Position numbers and translations under genes: made by a program
NCBI GenBank assembly: GCA_037720515.1
Contig: JBBJMM010000015.1
Span: 4,621-68,620, forward strand
From: Ferruginibacter sp.
GTDB lineage: Bacteria; Bacteroidota; Bacteroidia; Chitinophagales; Chitinophagaceae
Length of the DNA: 64,000 nt
Reading direction: 5' to 3'
Notes under the pieces: model-generated
Databases searched by the model: none
The model's input: only the letters and a program-made list of their open reading frames with translations
Told to the model about the DNA's origin: nothing
Shown: positions 2,660 to 47,803 of the stretch, piece after piece
How the letters are laid out: each line of letters starts with the position of its first letter
How positions within the stretch are numbered: the stretch's first letter is position 1

Positions 2660-2881
2660 CTAATACCTTTGCAGTCTTTGTGTATTCTTTGTGGTGCATT
2701 TCCTCTGTGAACTTTTTGGTTAAGTTTTTACCACAAAGGACACCAGGTTTTTCATTAAGGGTACAAAGAAATATTTGTTTTTAACCTAAAGGCTTATGTG
2801 GTTAACTTTTTACCACAAAGGGAACCAAGTTTTTCACTAAGGGCACAAAGAATAATTTGTTTTTAACCTAAAAGCCTTTGA
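2660..2881. repeat. CACAAAG-type intergenic repeat cluster with an 82-bp tandem duplication
   Basis: CTTTGTG...CTTTGTGGT (2676-2695) faces ACCACAAAGG copies; units 2718-2799 and 2800-2881 are near-identical. Confidence 0.75.
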
Positions 2882-2934: not shown

Positions 2935-4767
2935 ATGTATAGAACACATACCTGTGGAGAGCTGAGAATTAGCGATGCAAAAAAGGAAGTTACCTTATCG
3001 GGATGGGTACAAACTGTTCGGAAATTCGGAAGCATAACTTTTGTGGATTTGAGAGACCGGTATGGAATCACCCAATTGCTTTTTTCTGAAAATTTAAATG
3101 GTGAGCTGGATGCTAATCCTTTGGGCCGTGAATTTGTTTTGCAGGTAACCGGTACCGTTAATGAGCGTTCCAGTAAAAATTCCAATATTCATACCGGGGA
3201 TATAGAGATCCTCGTATCAAAATTTAATATTTTAAACCGGTCGTCTACCCCACCTTTTACCATCCAGGATGATACTGATGGCGGAGATGATATCAGGATG
3301 AAGTACAGGTTTCTCGACCTTAGGAGAAATGCCGTTAAAAAAAATTTAGAATTGCGGTATGCTGTTAGTCGCAGTGCCAGGAACTATCTGCACGAGAAAC
3401 AGTTCATGGATATAGAAACTCCTTTCCTTATAAAATCCACACCGGAAGGTGCCAGGGATTTTGTAGTTCCCTCACGTATGAACCCCGGCCAGTTTTATGC
3501 TTTGCCACAATCACCTCAAACTTTTAAACAGTTGCTTATGGTAAGCGGGTATGACCGCTATTACCAGATCGTAAAATGTTTCAGGGATGAGGATCTGAGA
3601 GCTGACAGGCAGCCGGAATTTACACAGATAGATTGTGAGATGGCATTTGTAGAGCAGGAAGACATTTTAATTATGTTTGAAGGAATGCTGCGCCATATCT
3701 TCAAAGATGTAAAAAATATAGTTCTCCCGGAGAAGATCGAACGCATGAGCTGGGAGGAAGCCATGTGGCTTTATGGAAATGATAAACCTGATATACGTTT
3801 TGATATAAAGCTCTCCAATATTAAATTCCCTTTATATACCCATCCTTCCAGGGAGGAACATTCAGATCTCATAAATGGAACAGATTTTAAGGTTTTTAAT
3901 GAGGCTGAAACTATAATCGCAATAAATATTCCCGGGGGAAGCGAATACACACGCAAGCAAACAGATGAACTAACGGAGTGGGTTAAACGACCCCAGGTTG
4001 GCATGAACGGCCTTGTGTATATTAAAGTGAATAGGGATAAATCTTATAAAAGCAGTGTTGATAAATTTTATGATGCCGACAAACTCGGGGCTATTGCACG
4101 CTTTGTTAAAGCACAACCGGGTGATCTGATACTGTTACTCGCAGGTGCAGAAGAAAAAACTCGGAAAGCTGCCAGTGACCTGAGATTGTATATGGGTGAA
4201 AAATTAGGTTTGAGAAAACCGGAAGAATTTAAATTATTGTGGGTTTTGGATTTCCCTTTATTTGAATATGATGCGGAAGGAAACCGCTGGGTGGCACGTC
4301 ACCATCCTTTTACTTCTCCAAAACCGGATCATATAGAGAGGATGATCAGCAACGACCCTGTTATTAAAGATGCTGCAGGTTATCTTGCACACCCTTATGC
4401 TTCAATAAAAGCGAATGCATATGATATGGTGATTAATGGAAACGAAATTGGCGGCGGTTCCATACGTATCTATAAAAAAGAATTACAGGAAAAAATGTTT
4501 GCTGCCTTAGGAATGGATGCAGAAGAACAACAACATAAATTCGGATTTCTACTGGGCGCCTTTGAATATGGTGCACCTCCGCATGGTGGGCTTGCCTTTG
4601 GATTTGACCGCCTGTGTGCTATATTGGGTGGAAGTGAAAGTATCCGTGATTTTATTGCTTTTCCTAAAAACAACAGTGGCCGCGATGTTATGCTGGATGC
4701 TCCTTCGAGTATTGATGAAAAACAACTGGTTGAATTACAAATTAAGACCGACCTAAAACAAGCATAA
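2935..4767 (+). CDS. aspS: Aspartate--tRNA ligase
   Basis: [11 protein letters not shown] start, [56 protein letters not shown]. Confidence 0.98.
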
Positions 4768-10159: not shown

Positions 10160-10340
10160 ACTTCACCGCAAAAACAGGAAGGCACGAAGCTTTGCAATGA
10201 TAGTTTATTAGCCCTTTGCGTTTCAGCGCCGCGGTTAAACAAACCGAAAAGTAGCCGCGTATATATTTATACTAACCTGGTAATAAGTTTTTTTTAAAAA
10301 ATATACGTCTATTAGAAAGGGGCGTATATTAGCATAAATA
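10160..10340. repeat. Copy of the GCGGTTAAA repeat composite
   Basis: CTTCACCGC..AAGGCACGAAG..GCAATGA matches 11024-11060; GCGGTTAAACAAACCGAAA(A/T)GTAGCCGCG matches 7217-7245. Confidence 0.75.
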
Positions 10341-10990: not shown

Positions 10991-11302
10991 AAACCTTAGC
11001 GTCTCCGCGCCTTCGCGGTTAAACTTCACCGCTACAAGAAGGCACGAAGTTTCGCAATGAAATAATCATAATTAAACCTCTGCGTCTCTCCACCTCCGCG
11101 GTTAAACTTTCAATGCAAAATCTTAGCGAAACCTTTGCGTCTTTCCACCTTCGCGGTTAAACTTCACCGCTAAGATAAGAAGGCACGAAACTTCGCAATG
11201 AAATAATCATAATTAAACCTCTGCGTCTCTCCACCTCCGCGGTTAAACTTTCATTGCAAAATCTTAGCGAAACCTTTGCGTACATACGCCTACGCGGTTA
11301 AA
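10991..11302. repeat. Tandem array of five 33-bp AAACC-N3-GCG...CGCGGTTAAA motifs (about 141-bp higher-order unit)
   Basis: Copies at 10991, 11074, 11129, 11215, 11270; the spacers also recur with 141-bp period. Confidence 0.85.
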
Positions 11303-39067: not shown

Positions 39068-40336
39068 TTAATGGTCATTCAGGGGAAGCCCTTGTTCCTG
39101 GAAGTCTTTCCAGTTCATGTATTCAGGAGCCACGCGTGATTCCACCATAGTAATGCAGTCTTCTACCGGGCACATGAGTTTACACAAATTACAACCAACG
39201 CATTCCTCTTCTTTTATTGTATAAATATTATAAGGGTCGCCGTATTGTAAAGCAATGGCCTGGTGAGAGGTATCTTCACAACCAATGAAACACAACCCGC
39301 AGTGTATGCATTTATCCTGATCAATTTTTGCAATGTGATGGTAGTTGATGTCGAGTTCTTCCCAATGCGTTATTGTTTCAACCGATCTTCCTATAAAATC
39401 GTTTACAGTGGCAAAACCTTTTTCATCCATCCAGTTGGCCATACCTTCACACATATCCTCGATAATGCGAAAACCATGTTTCATTGCTGCCGTACAAACC
39501 TGTACGTTAGAGGCACCCAGTAACATAAATTCAACCGCATCTTTCCAGGTACTGATCCCTCCTATACCGGAAACCGGAACTTTATTAGTGGTGGCATCCT
39601 GCGCAATGGTTGTAAGAAATTTTAAAGCGATCGGTTTAACCGCCGGTCCACAATAACCTCCAAAAACGGATTTACCGGCTACATAAGGATTGGGAACAAG
39701 TGTATCAAGGTCCACACCTGTGATCGATTGTATGGTATTGATTAGGGAAAGGCCATTCGTACCGGCTTTTACTACCGCTCTTCCGGCCGGAACAACTGAG
39801 TGAACATTAGGTGTAAGCTTTGTTATAACGGGAATGGTTGCACGCTCCATAACCCAACCCACTACCATTGCTGCAATTTCCGGATCCTGTCCCACTGCCG
39901 CTCCCATACCTCTTTCCGTCATCCCATGCGGACAACCAAAATTCAATTCCAATCCATGCGCACCGGTATCTTCCACTTTTTTAATAAGTTCATGCCAGCT
40001 GCTCTTGTCATTATCCGCCATTAATGAAACTATCATCGCCCGATCCGGGAATAACCGGATACATTCTTTTATTTCTTTAAGATTAATATTAAGTGGCCTG
40101 TCGCTGATAAGTTCAATATTATTAAAGCCCATTACTTTTTGCCCGCCAAAATCCACTGCTGAATAGCGGGAAGACACATTTTTTACCTGTGAACCCAATG
40201 TTTTCCAGACAACACCTCCCCAGCCTGCTTCAAATGCACGCAATACATTTATTTGTTTGTCAGTAGGGGGTGCACTGGCAAGCCAGAATGGGTTGGGGGA
40301 TTGTATGCCGAGGAAAGTACTCTGTAAATTTGCCAT
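39068..40336 (-). CDS. preA: Dihydropyrimidine dehydrogenase subunit PreA
   Basis: NPFWLASAPPT, GFNNIELI, LELNFGCPHG, KLTPNV, GGYCGPAVKPIAL, two CxxCxxC ferredoxin motifs. Confidence 0.96.
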   Translation of the reverse strand: MANLQSTFLGIQSPNPFWLASAPPTDKQINVLRAFEAGWGGVVWKTLGSQVKNVSSRYSAVDFGGQKVMGFNNIELISDRPLNINLKEIKECIRLFPDRAMIVSLMADNDKSSWHELIKKVEDTGAHGLELNFGCPHGMTERGMGAAVGQDPEIAAMVVGWVMERATIPVITKLTPNVHSVVPAGRAVVKAGTNGLSLINTIQSITGVDLDTLVPNPYVAGKSVFGGYCGPAVKPIALKFLTTIAQDATTNKVPVSGIGGISTWKDAVEFMLLGASNVQVCTAAMKHGFRIIEDMCEGMANWMDEKGFATVNDFIGRSVETITHWEELDINYHHIAKIDQDKCIHCGLCFIGCEDTSHQAIALQYGDPYNIYTIKEEECVGCNLCKLMCPVEDCITMVESRVAPEYMNWKDFQEQGLPLNDH

Positions 40337-40341
40337 TATGT

Positions 40342-40377
40342 TTCGCGCAAAGGCGCCAAGTTAAACAAGACGCCAAG
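40342..40377. repeat. Left arm of CGCAAAG inverted repeat bracketing the GxxExxY gene
   Basis: TTCGCGCAAAGGCGCCAAG (40342-40360) plus CAAGACGCCAAG. Confidence 0.75.
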
Positions 40378-40378
40378 T

Positions 40379-40759
40379 TTATAAATTATTTACTATTCTG
40401 TGAATCCCATCTTTAATAAGGTGCACATTAAAATTAACAAGTAAACCCAATCTTAAGTTAGTCAATTTTAAGTAAGTCTGTAGTTGCCTGTAATGGATAG
40501 GAGCCAACACTTCTATTGATTTTAGTTCTACAATCAATTTTCCATCGACAATAAAGTCCACTCTAAATCCTATTTCAAGTTTTATCTTTTCATGTATTAG
40601 TGGAATTGCATGCTGCCTTTCGAAAGTAAGTTCCGTTTTATGCAACTCGTAAGCAATTAATTCTTCATAAACGGATTCAAATAATCCCGGGCCATATTTT
40701 TTATGCAAACGAAAGCAAATATTCACCACTTGTTTTGCTATTTCGTTTTCAGAATACAT
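40379..40759 (-). CDS. GxxExxY family protein (PD-(D/E)xK nuclease-like)
   Basis: GPGLFESVYE, FRVDFIVDGKLIVELKS, QLQTYLKLTNLRLGLLVNF. Confidence 0.93.
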   Translation of the reverse strand: MYSENEIAKQVVNICFRLHKKYGPGLFESVYEELIAYELHKTELTFERQHAIPLIHEKIKLEIGFRVDFIVDGKLIVELKSIEVLAPIHYRQLQTYLKLTNLRLGLLVNFNVHLIKDGIHRIVNNL

Positions 40760-40850
40760 ACTGTTTCAATTCTATGATCCAAATATGCATTATAAATCCA
40801 ATAAACTTATATAGTAATCAACATCAATTGCTGCCTTTTTTCTTTCTTTG

Positions 40851-42206
40851 CTACTTTGCGTCTTTGCGTGAAATCAAAAAATCCATAATAGCAGCCGCCC
40901 CTTCTTTCCCCGCCTGCACTGCATCCACCACTTCCTTTCCCCCATTCACTGCATCTCCGCCGGCAAAAACGCCATCGAAGTTGGTAGTTACCTGTTCATC
41001 AATTACAATTCTGCCATGAGAATTATTGATCCCTTCATTATTTACAAGATCTTCAAAAGGTTCTTGTCCTGCTGCCTTTATGATCATATCTACTTCCATA
41101 ATAAATTGCTCACCTGTTTTCACGGGTGATCTTCGCCCACTTTCATCTGCCTCACCCAGTTGCATAACATCACATTTTAATGCTGCAACTCTTTTGTCAA
41201 TCCCCAGAACTTCTGCAGGTGCTGCCAGCCATTTTATATTACAACCATCCAGCATTGCGATTTCCAATTCCACATCCGTACAGGGCATCTCTTCCTTTGT
41301 TCGTCTATACAATATCGTGACTTCCTTTGCACCCAGCCTTTTTGCCTGGGTGGCGGCATCAATTGCCGTCATACCCATTCCGATAACAGCAACTTTTTCG
41401 CCTACTTCAACTTTATTAAAACCTTTACTCCGGATTTCATAAATAAAACTGATAGCATCCACTACACCTTGCATTTCCTCACCGGGTATGTTTAAACGAC
41501 GTGCCAGGCCAACACCAAATGCGAGGTAGACCGCATCATATTTTTTTTGCAATTCAGGGAGGTCTGTATTTCTTCCCAGTTCATGTTCATATTTTATGTT
41601 GATCCCCCCTATTGATAAAATATAATCTACTTCATTTTCACAAAATTCCGGCGTTACTTTATAAGCTGCAATACCGTACGTCATTAACCCGCCACCTTTT
41701 TTTTCCTTTTCATATATGGTAACGTCTATCCCTTCCCGTGATAAAACATGTGCACAACTTAAACCTGCAGGGCCAGCTCCTACGATAGCCACTTTTTTAT
41801 TAATGCCCGGCTTTCTTTTAAATAGCGGCCATTTTTTTTCCATAGCTATTTCTGTACTATAGCGTTGTAATTTAGCAATGGGTATGGGCGGCTCCTTCAT
41901 CAGGTTGAATACGCAACTGCCTTCACATAATTTTTCAACCGGACATACTTTGCCGCAACCTGCACCCATGATATTAGACAGAAATATTGTATGTGCACTG
42001 CCTTTGATATTATCAGTAGTGATCTGCTTTATAAATTTTGGAACATTGATGCTGGTTGGGCAGGCTTTGATACACGGCGCATCATAACAGAACAAGCACC
42101 TGTTGGCTTCTACCAGTGCGGCACCATAGGAGTCAAAAGGAGGATGGATATCGCTGAAATTTTCAGCATATTCCTTTTCCGAAAGGTTGTTATTTTGAAT
42201 TGCCAT
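40851..42206 (-). CDS. preT: Dihydropyrimidine dehydrogenase subunit PreT
   Basis: EANRCLFCYDAPCIKACPT, CGKVCPVEKLCEGSC, GAGPAGL, TAIDAA, VFAGGD. Confidence 0.93.
   Translation of the reverse strand: MAIQNNNLSEKEYAENFSDIHPPFDSYGAALVEANRCLFCYDAPCIKACPTSINVPKFIKQITTDNIKGSAHTIFLSNIMGAGCGKVCPVEKLCEGSCVFNLMKEPPIPIAKLQRYSTEIAMEKKWPLFKRKPGINKKVAIVGAGPAGLSCAHVLSREGIDVTIYEKEKKGGGLMTYGIAAYKVTPEFCENEVDYILSIGGINIKYEHELGRNTDLPELQKKYDAVYLAFGVGLARRLNIPGEEMQGVVDAISFIYEIRSKGFNKVEVGEKVAVIGMGMTAIDAATQAKRLGAKEVTILYRRTKEEMPCTDVELEIAMLDGCNIKWLAAPAEVLGIDKRVAALKCDVMQLGEADESGRRSPVKTGEQFIMEVDMIIKAAGQEPFEDLVNNEGINNSHGRIVIDEQVTTNFDGVFAGGDAVNGGKEVVDAVQAGKEGAAAIMDFLISRKDAK
40854..40873. repeat. Right arm of CGCAAAG inverted repeat, inside the preT 3' end
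   Basis: CTTTGCGTCTTTGCGTGAAA; its reverse complement TTTCACGCAAAGACGCAAAG matches the left arm. Confidence 0.75.
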
Positions 42207-42216
42207 ATTTTACATT

Positions 42217-42291
42217 TTCACGCAAAGGCGCTAAGAATAAAAAGCCGGAAAGATTTTTTGCGTCTTAAATCACTTTGCATCTTTGCGTGGA
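42217..42291. repeat. Empty CGCAAAG inverted-repeat element
   Basis: TTCACGCAAAGGCGCTAAG (42217) and CTTTGCATCTTTGCGTGGA (42273). Confidence 0.8.
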
Positions 42292-42297
42292 ATTACT

Positions 42298-43164
42298 TTA
42301 AAGTTCTACCAATTTACCATAAGTTTCCGGCCTTCTATCTCTAAAAAACTGCCACGTATTTCTTACTTCATCGATCATATCAAGGTCGAAATCGGCGATC
42401 AATAATTCGTCTTTGTCTTCACTTGCCTGGGAAAAAATTTGTCCGCGCGGATCAACAAAATAAGAGCTGCCATAAAACTTTCCAAGATTCCAGGGTTTCT
42501 CTTCACCCACCCGGTTAATGCAACCCATGAAATAACCATTTGCTGCGGCATGTGCCGGTTGCTCCAGTTTCCACAAATATTGCGACAAACCTGCAACTGT
42601 TGCCGAAGGATTGTATACGATCTCTGCACCGTTCAATCCCAGTACTCTTGCACCATCAGGGAAATGCCTGTCATAACAAATGTAAACACCCACTTTTGCG
42701 TACTTCGTTTGAAATACAGGGTAGCCAAGGTTTCCAGGTTTAAAGAAAAACTTTTCCCAAAACCCAGAGGTATGTGGTATATGATTCTTTCTGTATTTAC
42801 CCAGGTAAGTTCCATCTGCATCTATCACGGCAGCCGTATTGTATAATACTCCTGATTGTTCTTTTTCATAGATGGGAACGATAATTACCATATTGTATTT
42901 TTTTGCATACACCGCCATTCGTTCTGTAGTAGGCCCTGGTACAGCTTCTGCTGATGCATACCATTTCTTATCCTGCCCTGGGCAGAAATAAGGAGTATTA
43001 AAAATCTCCTGCAGGCAGAGTATCTGCACACCTTTTTCTCCTGCCTCTTCTATTAATGGAATGTGTTTTTGTATCATTGCTTCAATGATCTCGGGTATCG
43101 TTCCTTCACCTTCTGTTTTTGGGAGGCTCATTTGTATGAGGCCTGATTTTATTATCCTTGCCAT
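42298..43164 (-). CDS. Beta-ureidopropionase (N-carbamoyl-beta-alanine amidohydrolase), nitrilase superfamily
   Basis: Glu (LQEIF), Lys (YRKNHIP), Cys (ICYDRHF) triad; WQFFRDRRPE; operon context. Confidence 0.88.
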   Translation of the reverse strand: MARIIKSGLIQMSLPKTEGEGTIPEIIEAMIQKHIPLIEEAGEKGVQILCLQEIFNTPYFCPGQDKKWYASAEAVPGPTTERMAVYAKKYNMVIIVPIYEKEQSGVLYNTAAVIDADGTYLGKYRKNHIPHTSGFWEKFFFKPGNLGYPVFQTKYAKVGVYICYDRHFPDGARVLGLNGAEIVYNPSATVAGLSQYLWKLEQPAHAAANGYFMGCINRVGEEKPWNLGKFYGSSYFVDPRGQIFSQASEDKDELLIADFDLDMIDEVRNTWQFFRDRRPETYGKLVEL

Positions 43165-43184
43165 GTTATATTTTTTATATTTTT

Positions 43185-43249
43185 TTCACGCAAAGGTCTT
43201 TAGGAAATCTCCTTTTTGCGTCTTTGCATCTTATTTTCTTTGCGAGAAA
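43185..43249. repeat. Empty CGCAAAG inverted-repeat element (degenerate)
   Basis: TTCACGCAAAGG (43185), TTTTGCGTCTTTGC (43214), CTTTGCGAGAAA (43238). Confidence 0.7.
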
Positions 43250-43411: not shown

Positions 43412-44794
43412 TCAAATTATTCCACTCACTTTTTTCCTTCTTATAAATTTACCATACCCTTTTTCCAGTAAACAGTTGTTATTTTCTATAGCCACCTGGC
43501 CTCTTAATAAAACTGTTTTTACTTTCCCTGTTACTTCCCATCCTTCATAACCACTGTAATCAACATTCATGTGATGTGTTTTTGCAGAGAGGATATGCTT
43601 TTCATTGGGATCAAAAATAACTATATCAGCATCAGATCCTGTAGCAATAGTTCCTTTGCGGGGAAACATTCCAAAGATCTTTGCCGGGTTGGTACAGGCA
43701 ACTTCAACATATTTATTTACGGAGATCCTGTTTTTTACAACACCTTCACTAAACAATAACTCCATCCTGTTTTCAATTGCAGGATGACCATTAGGAATTT
43801 TTGAAAAATCATCTTTGCCCATTAGTTTCTGCTCCCACATAAAAGGGCAATGATCAGTAGCAACAACATTTACGGTTCCCTGGTTGATACCTGCCCACAA
43901 TGTAGACTGGTCTTTCATTTCACGCAATGGCGGGCTCATCACCCACTTCGCTCCTTCGAAATTATTTTCATATAAGGAAGCATCCAGGATCAGGTATTGA
44001 ATGCAGGTTTCTACAAAAACCTTTTGATTTCTTTTAGTTGCATTTCGCACCGCATTCAATGCACCTTCGCAGGTAAGATGAACAATATATCCCGGGCAAC
44101 CGGTGAAATTAGCCATATCTACAAACCTTTCGCTGGCTTCTGCTTCAGTTACTTCCGGCTGCGACAGGTAATGATACAACGGAGATAATTTTCCTTCTGT
44201 CCTGTGTTTTTGAATAAGGTAATCAATCATGTCTCCGTTAGTAGCATGAACATTTATCAGTCCACCTTGTTTTTTTACCTCTTCCATTAATCCTATCATC
44301 TGTCGATCATCGATCATCAATGCGCCTTTGTAAGCCATAAAAGTTTTAAAGGATGTTATTCCTTCCTTTTCTATGATGTCTTTTATTTCATTTTTAGTTA
44401 CCTCATTAAAGTCTGTTACAGCCATATGAAAACTATAGTCACCTACACAATTATTATCGGCACGGCTGCGCCAGTCATTCAATGCTGCGTACAAAGAGCG
44501 ACCCTGCGTTTGCAGAATAAAATCAATTACCATAGTTGTGCCTCCATACAAGGCAGCCCGCGTACCGGTTTCATAATTATCACTTGAAAATGTTCCCATA
44601 AAAGGCATATCCAGGTGAACATGAGGATCAATTCCACCGGGAAAAACCAGTTTCCCGGCAGCATTAATAATTGTATCAGCCTGCATCGACAAATTCTTTC
44701 CTATCGTATGTACCAACTCACCTTCGATATAAATATCTGCTTCATAATCATCTGTAGCGGTAACAATTCTTCCGTTCTTAATTAAAATAGACAT
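43412..44794 (-). CDS. hydA: Dihydropyrimidinase
   Basis: PGGIDPHVHL, SFKTFMAYK, VHATNG, IVHLT, ATDHCPF, KIPNG. Confidence 0.95.
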   Translation of the reverse strand: MSILIKNGRIVTATDDYEADIYIEGELVHTIGKNLSMQADTIINAAGKLVFPGGIDPHVHLDMPFMGTFSSDNYETGTRAALYGGTTMVIDFILQTQGRSLYAALNDWRSRADNNCVGDYSFHMAVTDFNEVTKNEIKDIIEKEGITSFKTFMAYKGALMIDDRQMIGLMEEVKKQGGLINVHATNGDMIDYLIQKHRTEGKLSPLYHYLSQPEVTEAEASERFVDMANFTGCPGYIVHLTCEGALNAVRNATKRNQKVFVETCIQYLILDASLYENNFEGAKWVMSPPLREMKDQSTLWAGINQGTVNVVATDHCPFMWEQKLMGKDDFSKIPNGHPAIENRMELLFSEGVVKNRISVNKYVEVACTNPAKIFGMFPRKGTIATGSDADIVIFDPNEKHILSAKTHHMNVDYSGYEGWEVTGKVKTVLLRGQVAIENNNCLLEKGYGKFIRRKKVSGII

Positions 44795-44803
44795 ATTGAA
44801 TTA

Positions 44804-44917
44804 TTTTGAATTTTGAATTTTAAATGAGAACAATAGAACATAGAGTATCTTATAACAAGAATACCTGCTAACTCTTTCATGCCTTTTAATTTAAAATCTA
44901 TAATTTAAAATTTAAAA
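44804..44917. repeat. Inverted heptad repeats (TTTTGAA)n ... (TTTAAAA)n
   Basis: Three heptads at 44804-44824 and four at 44890-44917 in the hydA/aminotransferase gap. Confidence 0.55.
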
Positions 44918-46255
44918 TACATCACTGTCTGCAATCTCGATCGCTTTTGAAATAATAGCCAGGCCTTCATCTATTTGTTCCTTCGTTATACAAAGCGGTG
45001 GTGCAATAAATACATAGCTCCAGCGAACAAAAGTATACATGCCCAGTTCCCTGATCTTTGCAGCCACTTTATTCATAACCGTCATTTCATCCGGCTTTGC
45101 ATTGAAGGGCGCCATTGGTTGCTTTGTTTTTTTATTCTTAACCAGTTCAATACAACCCAACAAACCTGTAGTTCTGAAATCCCCAATGGATGGATGTTTC
45201 ACTTTTAATTCCTCCATCCTTGCTGATATATAATTACCCATTGCCTGTGCATTTTCTATCAGGTTTTCTTCTTCATAAATTTTTATTGTTTCCAGTGCTG
45301 CTGCACAACTTACCGGGTGCGCGGAATAAGTTAATCCAAGGGGCAGTACAGCATCATCATACTTAGCAGCAATTTTATCCGACACCATCAGGCATCCAAA
45401 CGGAAGGTAACCGCAGGTGAGCCCTTTTGCCATACAGATCATATCCGGAATGATATCGTGGTTCTGAAAGCCAAACCATTTGCCGGTTCGTCCAAAGCCG
45501 CTCATTACTTCATCCATGATCAGGAGTATACCATTCACATCACATATTTTTCTTACCCGCGCCAGGTAGCCTTTGGGATATTGCAAACATCCCGAAGATC
45601 CGGATTCACCTTCCAATAGAATAGCAGCTATGTTGCCGGCTCCTTCATATGCGATCATTCTTTCCAGTGCTGCTACAGATTCGGATAAAAGGTTTTCTTC
45701 ACCATACTCCCAGCGGTAGTTGTAAGGCAGGTCAAAATGAATAAAGTTTGGAGCCTGCTGCGAGTCAACACTGATCCGCCGCGGATCTCCACTTGCCGAG
45801 ATCGCTGCAATAGATGCACCATGATAGGATTGATAGCGGGATAATATTTTATGACGCCCTGTATAATGACGCGCAAGTTTTATTGCATTTTCAATAGAAG
45901 TTGCGCCGCATAAGGTAAAGAAGGCTTTGTTGAGATCGCCCGGACAAATTTCTGCAAGTTTTTTACCAAGCTCACCCCGCACTTCTGTAACACAACCCGG
46001 GGTTACATAACTTACCTGTTGCATTTGTTTTATAACGGCTTCGGTTATACGCTGATTACCATGACCAATGTTCACATTCATCAATCCTGAAGAAAAATCA
46101 ATATACTTTTTATCATCAAAATCATACAGGTAAACTCCTTCGGCATATTTCACTGCAATTGGATCAATTCCTTTCTGTTTACTCCAACTAAATAAGGTAT
46201 AGTTTAGATTATTTTCAACAATCTCTTTCGTTTGGCTTTTTGTTTTGAATTCCAT
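44912..46255 (-). CDS. Class III PLP aminotransferase, probable beta-alanine aminotransferase (PydD-like)
   Basis: DFSSGLMNVNIGH, SYHG, DEVMSGFGRTG, MAKGLT, TYSAHP; start taken at MEFKTK. Confidence 0.88.
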   Translation of the reverse strand: MEFKTKSQTKEIVENNLNYTLFSWSKQKGIDPIAVKYAEGVYLYDFDDKKYIDFSSGLMNVNIGHGNQRITEAVIKQMQQVSYVTPGCVTEVRGELGKKLAEICPGDLNKAFFTLCGATSIENAIKLARHYTGRHKILSRYQSYHGASIAAISASGDPRRISVDSQQAPNFIHFDLPYNYRWEYGEENLLSESVAALERMIAYEGAGNIAAILLEGESGSSGCLQYPKGYLARVRKICDVNGILLIMDEVMSGFGRTGKWFGFQNHDIIPDMICMAKGLTCGYLPFGCLMVSDKIAAKYDDAVLPLGLTYSAHPVSCAAALETIKIYEEENLIENAQAMGNYISARMEELKVKHPSIGDFRTTGLLGCIELVKNKKTKQPMAPFNAKPDEMTVMNKVAAKIRELGMYTFVRWSYVFIAPPLCITKEQIDEGLAIISKAIEIADSDVF

Positions 46256-46273
46256 ACTTTGTATTTTTTTATG

Positions 46274-46345
46274 TTTCACGTAAAGGCGCAAAGAAATACA
46301 GAAGGAAAATTAGCGCCTTTGCTTACTTACCTACTTTGCGTGAAA
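46274..46345. repeat. Empty CGCAAAG inverted-repeat element
   Basis: TTTCACGTAAAGGCGCAAAG (46274) and TTAGCGCCTTTGC...CTTTGCGTGAAA (46310-46345). Confidence 0.8.
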
Positions 46346-47803
46346 TTAACTCATCCAGTTCACCCCAGCTTCCGGGTTCCATTTAGTTGTTGTCTTTTTT
46401 AATTTGGTCCAGAATTCTATTGAACTTTTTCCGGTGATATCGCCTACACCAAATTTGCTTTCATTCCAGCCCCCAAAAGAAAAGGGTTCTCTTGGAACGG
46501 GCACCCCTACATTAACGCCGATCATTCCTGCGCTGGCATTATCAATTATATATCTTGCCATTCCACCGTTCTGAGTAAATACACTGGCCGCATTGCCATA
46601 AGGATTTGCATTTTCAATTGCAAGGGCTTCATCCACTGTTTTTGTACGCATGATACTTACTACAGGGCCGAATATTTCTTCAGTTGCCACACTCATCCCG
46701 GGTGTAACATGATCAATAACAGTTGGACCTACATAAGTTCCGTTTTCTTTTCCCTTCACACGGGCATTCCTTCCGTCTACCAGTATTTTAGCGCCCTGTT
46801 CTTCTGCTTCAGTTATATATCTTTCAATACGCACCTGCGATTCTTTATTTATAACAGCGCCAAGATTTTCGCCGGGTGTGATCTTTCTTGCTTCCTCACA
46901 AATCTTATCAATGATGTGATCCACATCTCCTACAGCGATCATTGCGGAAGCCGCCATGCATCGCTGGCCTGCACAACCACTCATTGAAGCCGCCACATTT
47001 TGTGCAGTCATGGAAGGGATCGCATCCGGCAAAACCATTAAATGATTTTTAGCCCCGCCTAAAGCCAGGCATCTTTTATAATTTGCAGTTGAACGCTGAT
47101 AAACAATTTTTGCAACTTTAGTAGATCCTACAAAACTTACAGCTTCAATATCCGGGTGATCACAGATGGCTTCAACGATCTCAACATCCCCATGAACTAT
47201 ACTGAAAACTCCATCAGGTAACCCGGCTTCTTTCAACAATTCTGCTAATCTTCCACAACTTAAAGGCACTTTTTCAGAAGGCTTCATGATCATGCAATTT
47301 CCCAGTGCAATTGCATTTGGTAATGTCCAGTTAGGAACCATGCTTGGAAAATTGAATGGTACAATAGACGCTACCACTCCTAACGAAACATGTTCAGTGC
47401 GGCACTCCACTCCTTTACTCACCTCCAGGATCTCTCCGGTTACCAACTGTGGCAGTGAGGTTGCAAATTCAGTAAGCTCTATGCTTTTTTCAATTTCCGC
47501 CATAGCTTCGCTGAATGTTTTTCCATTTTCCTCCTGCACAAGTTCTGCCAGCTCTTTACTGTGCTTCTCCAATAAACTTTTATACCGGAAAAATACCTGT
47601 ACTCTTTCTTTTATGGGTGTTTTGCTCCAGGTAATATGCGCTTTTTTTGCAGCACGTACGGCATTATTCAGATCTTCCAGATCCGAAAGGGGAACTGTTG
47701 ATAATAATTTTCCGTCAAGAGGAGAAATGATATCAATGGTTTTATTTCCGGATGGCTTTGCAAATACTCCATTAACAAAATTTTGAACAGGGCTATACTT
47801 CAT
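46346..47803 (-). CDS. mmsA: CoA-acylating (methyl)malonate-semialdehyde dehydrogenase
   Basis: PFNFP, KPSEKVP, FVGST, LGGAKNH, GCAGQRCMA, EEIFGP, GVNVGVPVP. Confidence 0.93.
   Translation of the reverse strand: MKYSPVQNFVNGVFAKPSGNKTIDIISPLDGKLLSTVPLSDLEDLNNAVRAAKKAHITWSKTPIKERVQVFFRYKSLLEKHSKELAELVQEENGKTFSEAMAEIEKSIELTEFATSLPQLVTGEILEVSKGVECRTEHVSLGVVASIVPFNFPSMVPNWTLPNAIALGNCMIMKPSEKVPLSCGRLAELLKEAGLPDGVFSIVHGDVEIVEAICDHPDIEAVSFVGSTKVAKIVYQRSTANYKRCLALGGAKNHLMVLPDAIPSMTAQNVAASMSGCAGQRCMAASAMIAVGDVDHIIDKICEEARKITPGENLGAVINKESQVRIERYITEAEEQGAKILVDGRNARVKGKENGTYVGPTVIDHVTPGMSVATEEIFGPVVSIMRTKTVDEALAIENANPYGNAASVFTQNGGMARYIIDNASAGMIGVNVGVPVPREPFSFGGWNESKFGVGDITGKSSIEFWTKLKKTTTKWNPEAGVNWMS

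Follow-up and report, generated by a model that had tools for sequence, protein, structure and literature searches.

In REPIN/RAYT systems, doublets of repetitive extragenic palindromic (REP) sequences go together with a REP-associated tyrosine transposase (RAYT) (PMC3337134, PMC3116915). Ssn/NTS systems pair GIY-YIG site-specific single-stranded DNA nucleases with dispersed hairpin repeats (PMC11893778), and the 23S rRNA intervening sequences (IVS) of Coxiella and Leptospira can bear an open reading frame (ORF) of the S23p/PF05635 family (PMC4990558). Here, we describe a locus that resembles each of these in part. It lies in a 64,000-nucleotide stretch of a Ferruginibacter genome (the window; positions 4621 to 68620 of contig C17; genome size 3.16 Mb, 37% G+C), where a gene for a 126-residue GxxExxY protein (PF13366, PDDEXK_3) stands between preT and preA, framed by inverted arrays ("arms") of a 7-nt word, CGCAAAG. 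The first-pass annotation of this DNA took the gene for the autonomous, mobilizing copy of a repeat system akin to REPs or miniature inverted-repeat transposable elements (MITEs). Our analysis supports that interpretation in part, and the data favor a protein that reads the units of its own arms.

A GxxExxY gene framed by phased word arrays

The cassette of gene and arms is about 533 bp long (40341-40873) and occupies exactly the stop/start junction of preT and preA, confirming that the gene is bracketed by an inverted repeat as first annotated. Each arm is made of 2 to 4 phased CGCAAAG units, and the two arms are mutually inverted. The upstream arm includes the last 7 codons of preT and its stop (..ISRKDAK*). 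The downstream arm, whose units read CTTGGCG or CTTTGCG on the gene strand, directly adjoins the stop codon of the GxxExxY gene; its terminal letters are ..CTTTGCGCGAAA, and 4 nt separate it from the preA ATG. A distance of 40 nt between stop codon and arm terminus is found in most orthologous cassettes. Because the cassette has the orientation of the operon, it is most likely expressed by read-through transcription.

The protein matches TIGR04256 (GxxExxY) over its full length (E 3.2e-37, 127.4 bits; cut-off, 35), and PF13366 is its sole Pfam match (E 2.9e-36, 124.8 bits; cut-off, 22). Residues G25, E28, and Y31 of the GxxExxY motif are present, as are D68, E78, and K80, and all six are invariant in 49 close homologs and in 8 diverse ones. 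The ratio dN/dS between orthologs is 0.04 to 0.09, indicating strong purifying selection, and the AlphaFold (AF2) model, which is confident (predicted local distance difference test score, 88.9), has the order alpha-alpha-beta-beta-beta-alpha-beta-beta. Judged from its sequence and model, the protein is selected, with its predicted catalytic residues intact and a predicted nuclease-type fold. Searches returned no meaningful relative by sequence in the PDB, no match among PADLOC defense profiles, no match in Rfam, and two marginal matches in PHROGs (E about 0.003 to 0.007). The family is large: at E<=0.001, 15,629 clusters (50% identity) match. Some members, of about 265 to 295 aa (e.g., P0121 to P0124), contain two tandem GxxExxY domains, suggesting a dimer as the working unit of the single-domain proteins.

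The same arms recur without the gene

The sequence TTCACGCAAAG occurs 35 times in the genome, against about 1.3 copies estimated from composition and 0 for a reversed-pattern control. All copies but one (34/35) are intergenic, mostly a few bases from a stop or start codon. The genome has about 20 gene-less arm pairs with the CGCAAAG word, and only 1 of about 20 CGCAAAG loci carries the gene. Three gene-less pairs lie in the same operon as the gene-bearing copy (Table 1), in agreement with the first-pass annotation; finding 4 arm loci within this one 6-kb operon has a Poisson probability of about 2e-4, given about 28 loci.

An all-against-all comparison of 39 arm loci showed that they share their arms only (20 to 40 nt), save for a few composites with other repeat families; the gene-less loci have 26 to 40 nt of arm in common, and no common loop and no gene remnants were found among them. 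The gene-less copies are REP-like arm pairs and not deletion derivatives, because only the arms are common to them and the loops are unrelated. The proposed division into autonomous and non-autonomous copies thus stands insofar as gene and arms form one unit and gene-less pairs exist, and falls with respect to their MITE-like nature, which we rejected since gene-less copies match one another at the arms alone. Readings of the arms as transcription factor operators or terminators were also rejected: the arms differ between species at the same gaps and occur at unrelated loci, and no T-run follows them in the operon direction.

We counted TTCACGCAAAG in 61 genomes of the genus, with statistics not corrected for phylogeny. 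The median was 10 in genomes with an ortholog of the gene and 2 in those without (Mann-Whitney p=0.0015), and p was 0.008 when only orthologs with CGCAAAG arms were considered, our own genome was left out, and the gene's two arms were subtracted. Cognate gene-less arm pairs are enriched where the gene is present. Some genomes are exceptions, with arms and no cognate gene. In none of the genus genomes examined did these arms frame a further copy of the gene.

Gene and arms stay together at two junctions

Comparison of the preT|preA junction in 26 relatives showed both filled and empty sites. Some of the relatives' genomes used in this work are 71 to 88% complete. Five species have a GxxExxY ortholog with CGCAAAG-type arms, and four have a PF05635 four-helix-bundle gene in TGAATGTTGA-type arrays. 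Several carry gene-less hairpins or arrays of other words, of up to 387 bp, and in three species the junction is only 2 to 8 bp long. Further cassettes at this junction were found later in L039, L040, and L047 and in metagenome contigs L082 to L087, giving 8 genus genomes plus contigs overall; an apparent 200-bp difference in L085 and L086 proved to be a later preA start call only. The 387-bp gap, in L026 (G030), has no ORF and is filled entirely by about 20 GAGTTAAG-type units and, after them, about 20 in inverse orientation.

A second site for the gene is the nuoF|nuoG junction, where nine other species of the genus have orthologs at 55 to 70% identity. Most of these have TTCACGCAAAG arms, the word having drifted to CACAAAG in the two most diverged. 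Across both unrelated junctions, orthologs at 58 to 83% identity keep TTCACGCAAAG-type arms, and in every case the upstream stop codon marks the arm's beginning to within a few bases, and the downstream ATG follows shortly after its end. The gene has the orientation of its upstream host gene at 31 of 32 loci, which can be grouped as about 14 of 15 independent contexts. The preT|preA and nuoF|nuoG contexts cluster in the protein tree, which is too short to count moves, our trees being generally short and weakly supported. A GxxExxY gene at preT|preA that lacked arms, which the first-pass annotation named as evidence against its proposal, was not encountered; the orthologs there keep CGCAAAG arms. 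Gene and arms are one self-framed unit, inherited and relocated as a whole.

The gene-less pairs turn over on a longer time scale than that separating strains. A relative with 79% protein identity has CGCAAAG hairpins in common with our genome in two operon gaps and a different family in the third; hairpins change between species but not between strains, pointing to turnover at the species scale and stasis at the strain scale. The other gaps of the operon measure 0 to 23 bp in three species and elsewhere contain varying combinations of hairpin families, PF05635 genes, and, in one case, an IS200-like gene. The last, encoding a 153-aa IS200-like Y1 transposase, lies in L081 (G064) between the genes for methylmalonate-semialdehyde dehydrogenase (MMSDH) and the aminotransferase, and an unrelated 274-aa ORF occupies the gap between the carbon-nitrogen (CN) hydrolase gene and preT in L074 (G016). 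The junctions of this operon gather several kinds of small insert.

Each word goes with its own protein

The genome contains 6 GxxExxY genes, each bracketed by inverted arrays. The words of these paralogs are all different (CACAGAT, CGCAAAG, CGCAGAG, GCTGAT, CACGAAT, and CACAAAG/CACGAAG), with one gene per arm type and many gene-less copies. Four further repeat sites in the window, first annotated as variants of the arms at preT|preA, are not CGCAAAG variants and belong to the arm families of two other paralogs, C36:81623 and C10:69226 (Table 1), whose words have 16 and 26 copies in the genome, respectively. The paralog at C36:81623-81972 is broken by TAG and TAA stops and still has long flanking arrays, built from a unit of roughly 22 nt (CCACAAAGAACACGAAGGAAAA, 3 copies) and the inverse of this unit; gene-less copies of its word persist. 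On a genome-wide inverted-repeat score with strict mismatch penalties, which under-scores array-type arms, the 6 GxxExxY genes reach 19 to 37 (genome 99th percentile, 30); the score nevertheless retrieved PF05635 and Y1 transposase genes.

To define the framing beyond the genus, we surveyed 79 loci of the closest relatives, from Bacteroidota, Acidobacteriota, Cyanobacteriota, Planctomycetota, Verrucomicrobiota, Chloroflexota, and others. A flank inverted-repeat score of at least 24 was reached at 65 of the 79 loci (82%) and in 3 of 152 displaced-flank controls (2%), and a score of at least 30 at 53 loci and in 1 control, bearing out the predicted enrichment of inverted repeats around GxxExxY homologs. 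The unit core C[GA]C[AG][AG]AG is kept in a combined set of 103 loci and is exactly CGCAAAG in 38 of 73 callable loci. In the 103 loci, arms have 2 to 4 units, mostly spaced by 8 nt (70 cases), 9 nt (37 cases), or 10 nt (13 cases).

The more alike two proteins are, the more alike are their right arms (Mantel rho 0.59, p 0.0005). Even at 50 to 70% protein identity, the arms still score 11 to 15 over a background of 5.9 +/- 1.3, and the spacer upstream of the ATG is down to 8 to 9. The words are specific to protein clades and constrained as sequence while other noncoding DNA decays. This constraint acts on the word array and not on a stem: outside the terminus that they share, two arms from the same cassette are not more complementary than arms from different cassettes (0.56 versus 0.52; permutation p 0.13). 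No compensatory pairing between the two arms of a cassette was found. That word and phasing are what is conserved suggests that a protein recognizes the arms, rather than that base pairing is selected for. In the minimum-free-energy structure of the 544-nt RNA, the arms do pair and enclose the cassette, with an imperfect stem and a whole-cassette z of -1.5, and two gene-less copies fold better than shuffles (Table 1).

The second base of the word covaries with residue 123 of the protein. Among 70 loci with a callable unit, V, A, or S at this position goes with CGC in 54 of 55 cases and I goes with CAC in 15 of 15, a mutual information of 0.67 of 0.75 bit. In a tree built without the last eight residues, well-supported branches show at least 4 changes of word type, and the best tree shows 8. 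Residue 123 is concordant in 4 of 4 phylogenetically independent pairs, and the next-best columns reach 0.4 to 1.5 of 4. These data provide a lead in which residue 123 would be a possible specificity contact for word base 2.

Other genes in similar frames

PF05635 four-helix-bundle genes are present at nine loci in the genome, six of them in inverted arrays of their own. One occupies our genome's own nuoF|nuoG junction (C25:9678-10064) in AAAGTCAAAAGT-type arrays, where relatives have GxxExxY genes, mostly with CGCAAAG arms. Similarly, relatives have PF05635 genes in the preT|preA gap, as described above, and in the dihydropyrimidinase|CN-hydrolase gap. The two cargo families thus swap at the same two junctions. 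Every cassette, whether with a GxxExxY or a PF05635 gene, has a word of its own, which argues for a specificity factor encoded inside the cassette, by the enclosed protein.

Two IS200/RAYT-like Y1 transposase genes are also present (C20:6171-6689 and C18:4432-4983), with REPs of their own, TGCCGCGTGGTGTTATCACCAGCGGC and GGTTCGTGTCCCCACGAA. The REP of the C18 gene directly adjoins solo CGCAAAG arms at two sites, C18:8114 and C33:14741.

A model for the cassette and its alternatives

We think that the locus is best read as a partnership of nuclease and repeat, comparable to RAYT/REPIN or Ssn/NTS, whose protein recognizes the units of its own arms, and we hold this reading with confidence just short of even. 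The protein, probably as a dimer or higher oligomer, would bind DNA at arrays of its own 7-nt units, 8 to 10 nt apart, and would probably nick or cut the bound arrays; the roughly 20 gene-less arm pairs would be further cognate sites of the same protein. Action at the arms, together with host repair or replication, may occasionally seed new arm pairs and, more rarely, move the whole cassette to another stop/start junction, these last two steps being the more weakly inferred. Taken by parts, the suggestion that the protein reads, and probably cuts, its own word arrays has a slightly better than even chance of being right. The suggestion that such activity seeds new arm pairs or moves the cassette is tentative and has appreciably less than an even chance. 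A wider generalization is doubtful: each GxxExxY protein may be a nuclease or DNA reader specific for one 7-nt word, phased on both sides of its gene, with single residues tracking single bases (residue 123 V/A versus I for word base 2 G versus A), and together with the PF05635 cassettes the GxxExxY cassettes may form an undescribed, cross-phylum class of self-framed elements that seeds REP-like hairpins into operon stop/start junctions.

Several results weigh against a partnership of protein and repeat. Frames of this kind also surround PF05635 genes, whose products lack a nuclease fold, at the same two junctions, and the architecture therefore needs no nuclease. The association of arm copy number with the gene ignores phylogeny; four genomes without any GxxExxY gene have 5 to 7 arms (G015, G034, G061, and G084), and four without a cognate ortholog, two of them incomplete, have at least 10. 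The covariation at residue 123 amounts to 4 well-supported contrasts (sign test p 0.125), and it could also stem from an effect of the DNA close to the 3' terminus of the gene, although no unit can be seen over codon 123. No movement was seen among relatives whose protein is 79 to 83% identical, all of which keep the preT|preA cassette with the same arms, and the only other contig with an identical protein, from a second assembly of the same strain, has 100% identical DNA. Filled and empty junctions showed no target-site duplication or footprint, the junctions being too diverged for this comparison and the arm replacing the end of preT. Foldseek matches of the model to solved nucleases are weak (best E 0.017; TM score, 0.43 to 0.56), and those named all have the PD-(D/E)XK fold (tRNA splicing endonuclease, Cas4 SSO0001, CinB, lambda exonuclease, and Hjc). 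A full-text literature search found no biochemical activity for any GxxExxY/PF13366 member and no paper linking the family to repeats. The first-pass proposal that GxxExxY is the mobilizer stays conjectural and is weakened by the PF05635 frames, the arms without a gene, and the lack of observed movement or target-site duplication.

The frame could instead be the functional part. On an IVS-like explanation, the inverted arrays would pair in the transcript and be processed, e.g., by RNase III, or be moved by host functions, and GxxExxY and PF05635 genes would be interchangeable cargo. The ends of 23S IVS form stems that are cut by RNase III (PMC4990558). Our cassettes are almost always co-oriented with the operon and are closed by their arms in the predicted RNA fold, and the two gene-less copies mentioned above have folds that beat shuffles (z of -2.5 and -2.7). 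The use of one architecture by PF05635 genes at the same two junctions, and the gene-less arrays of up to 387 bp at preT|preA in L026, would also follow. However, the arms of one element are not more complementary than those of different elements, the whole-cassette fold has a z of only -1.5, Rfam gives no match, and the gene is under strong purifying selection. Further, each cassette in the genome has a word of its own, which goes with the clade of the protein inside; this is unexpected if the cargo is irrelevant to the arms. We regard the IVS-like explanation as unlikely.

Two further explanations separate the origin of the gene from that of its arms or make the arms a route for copying it. 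The CGCAAAG hairpins may be ordinary REP-like or regulatory repeats, spread or kept by, e.g., RAYT-like Y1 transposases or selection for transcript stabilization, inside one of which the gene happened to land. This would account for arms in genomes without GxxExxY (5 to 7 copies), their abundance in the four genomes without a cognate ortholog, and the many hairpin families in the same operon gaps of relatives; the two Y1 transposase-like genes, one with its REP beside a solo CGCAAAG arm at two sites, could supply the agent. Both Y1 genes are flanked by unrelated REPs of their own, however, and the CGCAAAG word accompanies the GxxExxY clade to a second junction and to other phyla. Since each paralog has a different word on both sides, repeated chance landings in matching hairpins are implausible, and we consider independent host repeats quite improbable as the explanation. 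Less probable still is a homing cassette, in which the nuclease would cut gene-less hairpins and repair from the gene-bearing copy through arm homology would copy the gene in. Homing endonucleases of the PD-(D/E)XK type do exist, the genome has sites with the same arms both with and without the gene, and the cassette is found at two junctions in the genus. Homing would be hard to reconcile with a gene at only 1 of about 20 CGCAAAG loci in our genome, a single gene for each arm type, arms that are only 30 to 40 nt long and imperfect, and the lack of a second gene-bearing copy with the same arms in the genus genomes examined.

The operon and its other repeats

The region from 38 to 48 kb of the window is a minus-strand operon for reductive pyrimidine breakdown, and named homologs are from Chitinophagaceae (Ferruginibacter, Hanamia, and Lacibacter). 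Its genes and the repeats discussed here are collected in Table 1.

Table 1. Positions of operon genes, cassette parts, and repeat elements in the window
Feature	Position	Strand	Remarks
Gene-less arrays, ACCACAAAG (CACAAAG-type) family	2660-2881		Match arms of broken paralog C36:81623
Gene-less hairpin, AACCGCnGAGG / GACGCAGAG (CGCAGAG) family	7016-7225		Matches arms of paralog C10:69226
Further AACCGCnGAGG/CGCAGAG copies	10160-10240 and 10991-11302		Same match to C10:69226 arms
preA	39068-40336	-	NF006183 PreA, E 2.6e-194
Downstream (3') arm, reverse complement TTTCGCGCAAAGGCGCCAAGTTAAACAAGACGCCAAGTT	40341-40378	-	About 4 inverted CGCAAAG-type units
GxxExxY / PF13366 (PDDEXK_3) gene, 126 aa	40379-40759	-	Between preT and preA, co-oriented with operon
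Internal noncoding spacer, upstream arm to start codon	40760-40842	-	Not conserved among orthologous cassettes
Upstream (5') arm TTTCACGCAAAGACGCAAAGTAGCAAAGAAAG = TTTCACGCAAAG ACGCAAAG TAGCAAAG AAAG	40843-40873	-	Phased CGCAAAG units
preT	40851-42206	-	Operon gene upstream of GxxExxY gene
Gene-less CGCAAAG hairpin, CN-hydrolase|preT gap	42216-42292		RNA fold -21.1 kcal/mol, z -2.5
CN hydrolase	42298-43164	-	Operon gene
Gene-less CGCAAAG hairpin, dihydropyrimidinase|CN-hydrolase gap	43184-43249		RNA fold z -2.7
Dihydropyrimidinase	43412-44794	-	Operon gene
Class-III aminotransferase	about 44912-46258	-	Operon gene
Gene-less CGCAAAG hairpin, MMSDH|aminotransferase gap	46274-46345		Begins right after MMSDH stop codon
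MMSDH	46346-47803	-	Operon gene

The listed ORF of the aminotransferase starts at a TTG (46291) inside the hairpin of the MMSDH|aminotransferase gap. The true start is likely the ATG near 46258, which leaves 46258-46291 outside the gene and the whole hairpin in the gap. The next gap, between the aminotransferase and dihydropyrimidinase genes (44795-44911, 117 bp), has TTTAAAAT-type arrays at both ends and no permease gene. This position is occupied in 14 relatives by a gene of about 1.4 kb, which in L082 encodes a cytosine/purine permease (PF02133), and the arrays in our genome resemble those that L082 has between its aminotransferase and permease genes. Recombination between hairpin elements may have removed the permease gene from our genome. 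For annotation, two consequences of the cassettes matter: they rewrite the C termini of host proteins (PreT here ends in the arm-encoded SRKDAK), and they occupy operon gaps that are 0 to 23 bp long in some related species.

Comparison with known systems

PF13366/GxxExxY is one of the larger prokaryotic families without an assigned function, and its constant framing by cognate word arrays yields a concrete hypothesis on what the protein binds or cuts. If this hypothesis is true, a class of hairpin repeats found between genes of Bacteroidota and other phyla would be explained, a third enzyme fold would join the HUH/Y1 RAYTs and the GIY-YIG Ssn enzymes in nuclease-repeat partnerships, and the family would be a possible source of small nucleases with readable, varied specificities.

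As in REPIN/RAYT systems, a small gene lies between its own inverted repeats, with one gene per repeat type and paralogs that have types of their own. The gene-less doublets are likewise intergenic, have variable spacers, and far outnumber the gene, and both systems show long vertical persistence with little or no visible recent movement. The enzymes differ, however: the GxxExxY protein is a predicted PD-(D/E)XK nuclease of 126 aa (PF13366, with no Y1_Tnp match) and not an HUH/Y1 transposase. Whereas a REP is a self-complementary sequence of 20 to 35 nt, the repeat here consists of 2 to 4 direct 7-nt words at 8- to 10-nt spacing, and in the GxxExxY cassette only the two arms together are inverted. 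A further difference is that the gene here lies inside an operon stop/start junction and has moved between junctions and phyla with its arms.

The Ssn/NTS systems similarly have a small stand-alone nuclease gene with the repeat on both sides, although action on the repeat is demonstrated for Ssn (PMC11893778) and is predicted here. In both, the repeat is present in many dispersed copies, repeat variants go with nuclease variants, and repeat abundance goes with the presence of the gene, with exceptions here in the four genomes that have at least 10 arms and no ortholog. The folds are different (PF13366 PD-(D/E)XK versus GIY-YIG cd10448), and the Ssn repeat is a hairpin motif, whereas ours is a phased word array. 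Framing is also more frequent here, at 82% of 79 loci, compared with 42% of Ssn homologs flanked on both sides (PMC11893778).

In its build, the cassette comes close to the ORF-bearing 23S IVS: a unit of about 0.45 to 0.55 kb with terminal complementary sequences around one small ORF, which sits in a transcribed region without destroying it and is sporadically distributed. Sister cassettes at the very same junctions even carry a PF05635 ORF. Unlike an IVS, it lies in an mRNA operon, between preT and preA, and not in an rRNA helix; its cargo is a predicted nuclease, and its arms are word arrays of imperfect complementarity. Insertion sequences with MITEs share the terminal inverted repeats around a single gene and the shorter gene-less elements with the same ends. 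In contrast to these, the cassette has no transposase fold, no target-site duplication was seen and no multiple identical copies exist, and the gene-less copies, unlike MITEs, lack internal sequence of the gene-bearing copy. The cassette thus works most like RAYT/REPIN and Ssn/NTS and is built like an ORF-bearing 23S IVS, and it departs from each of them in a defining feature of enzyme or location.

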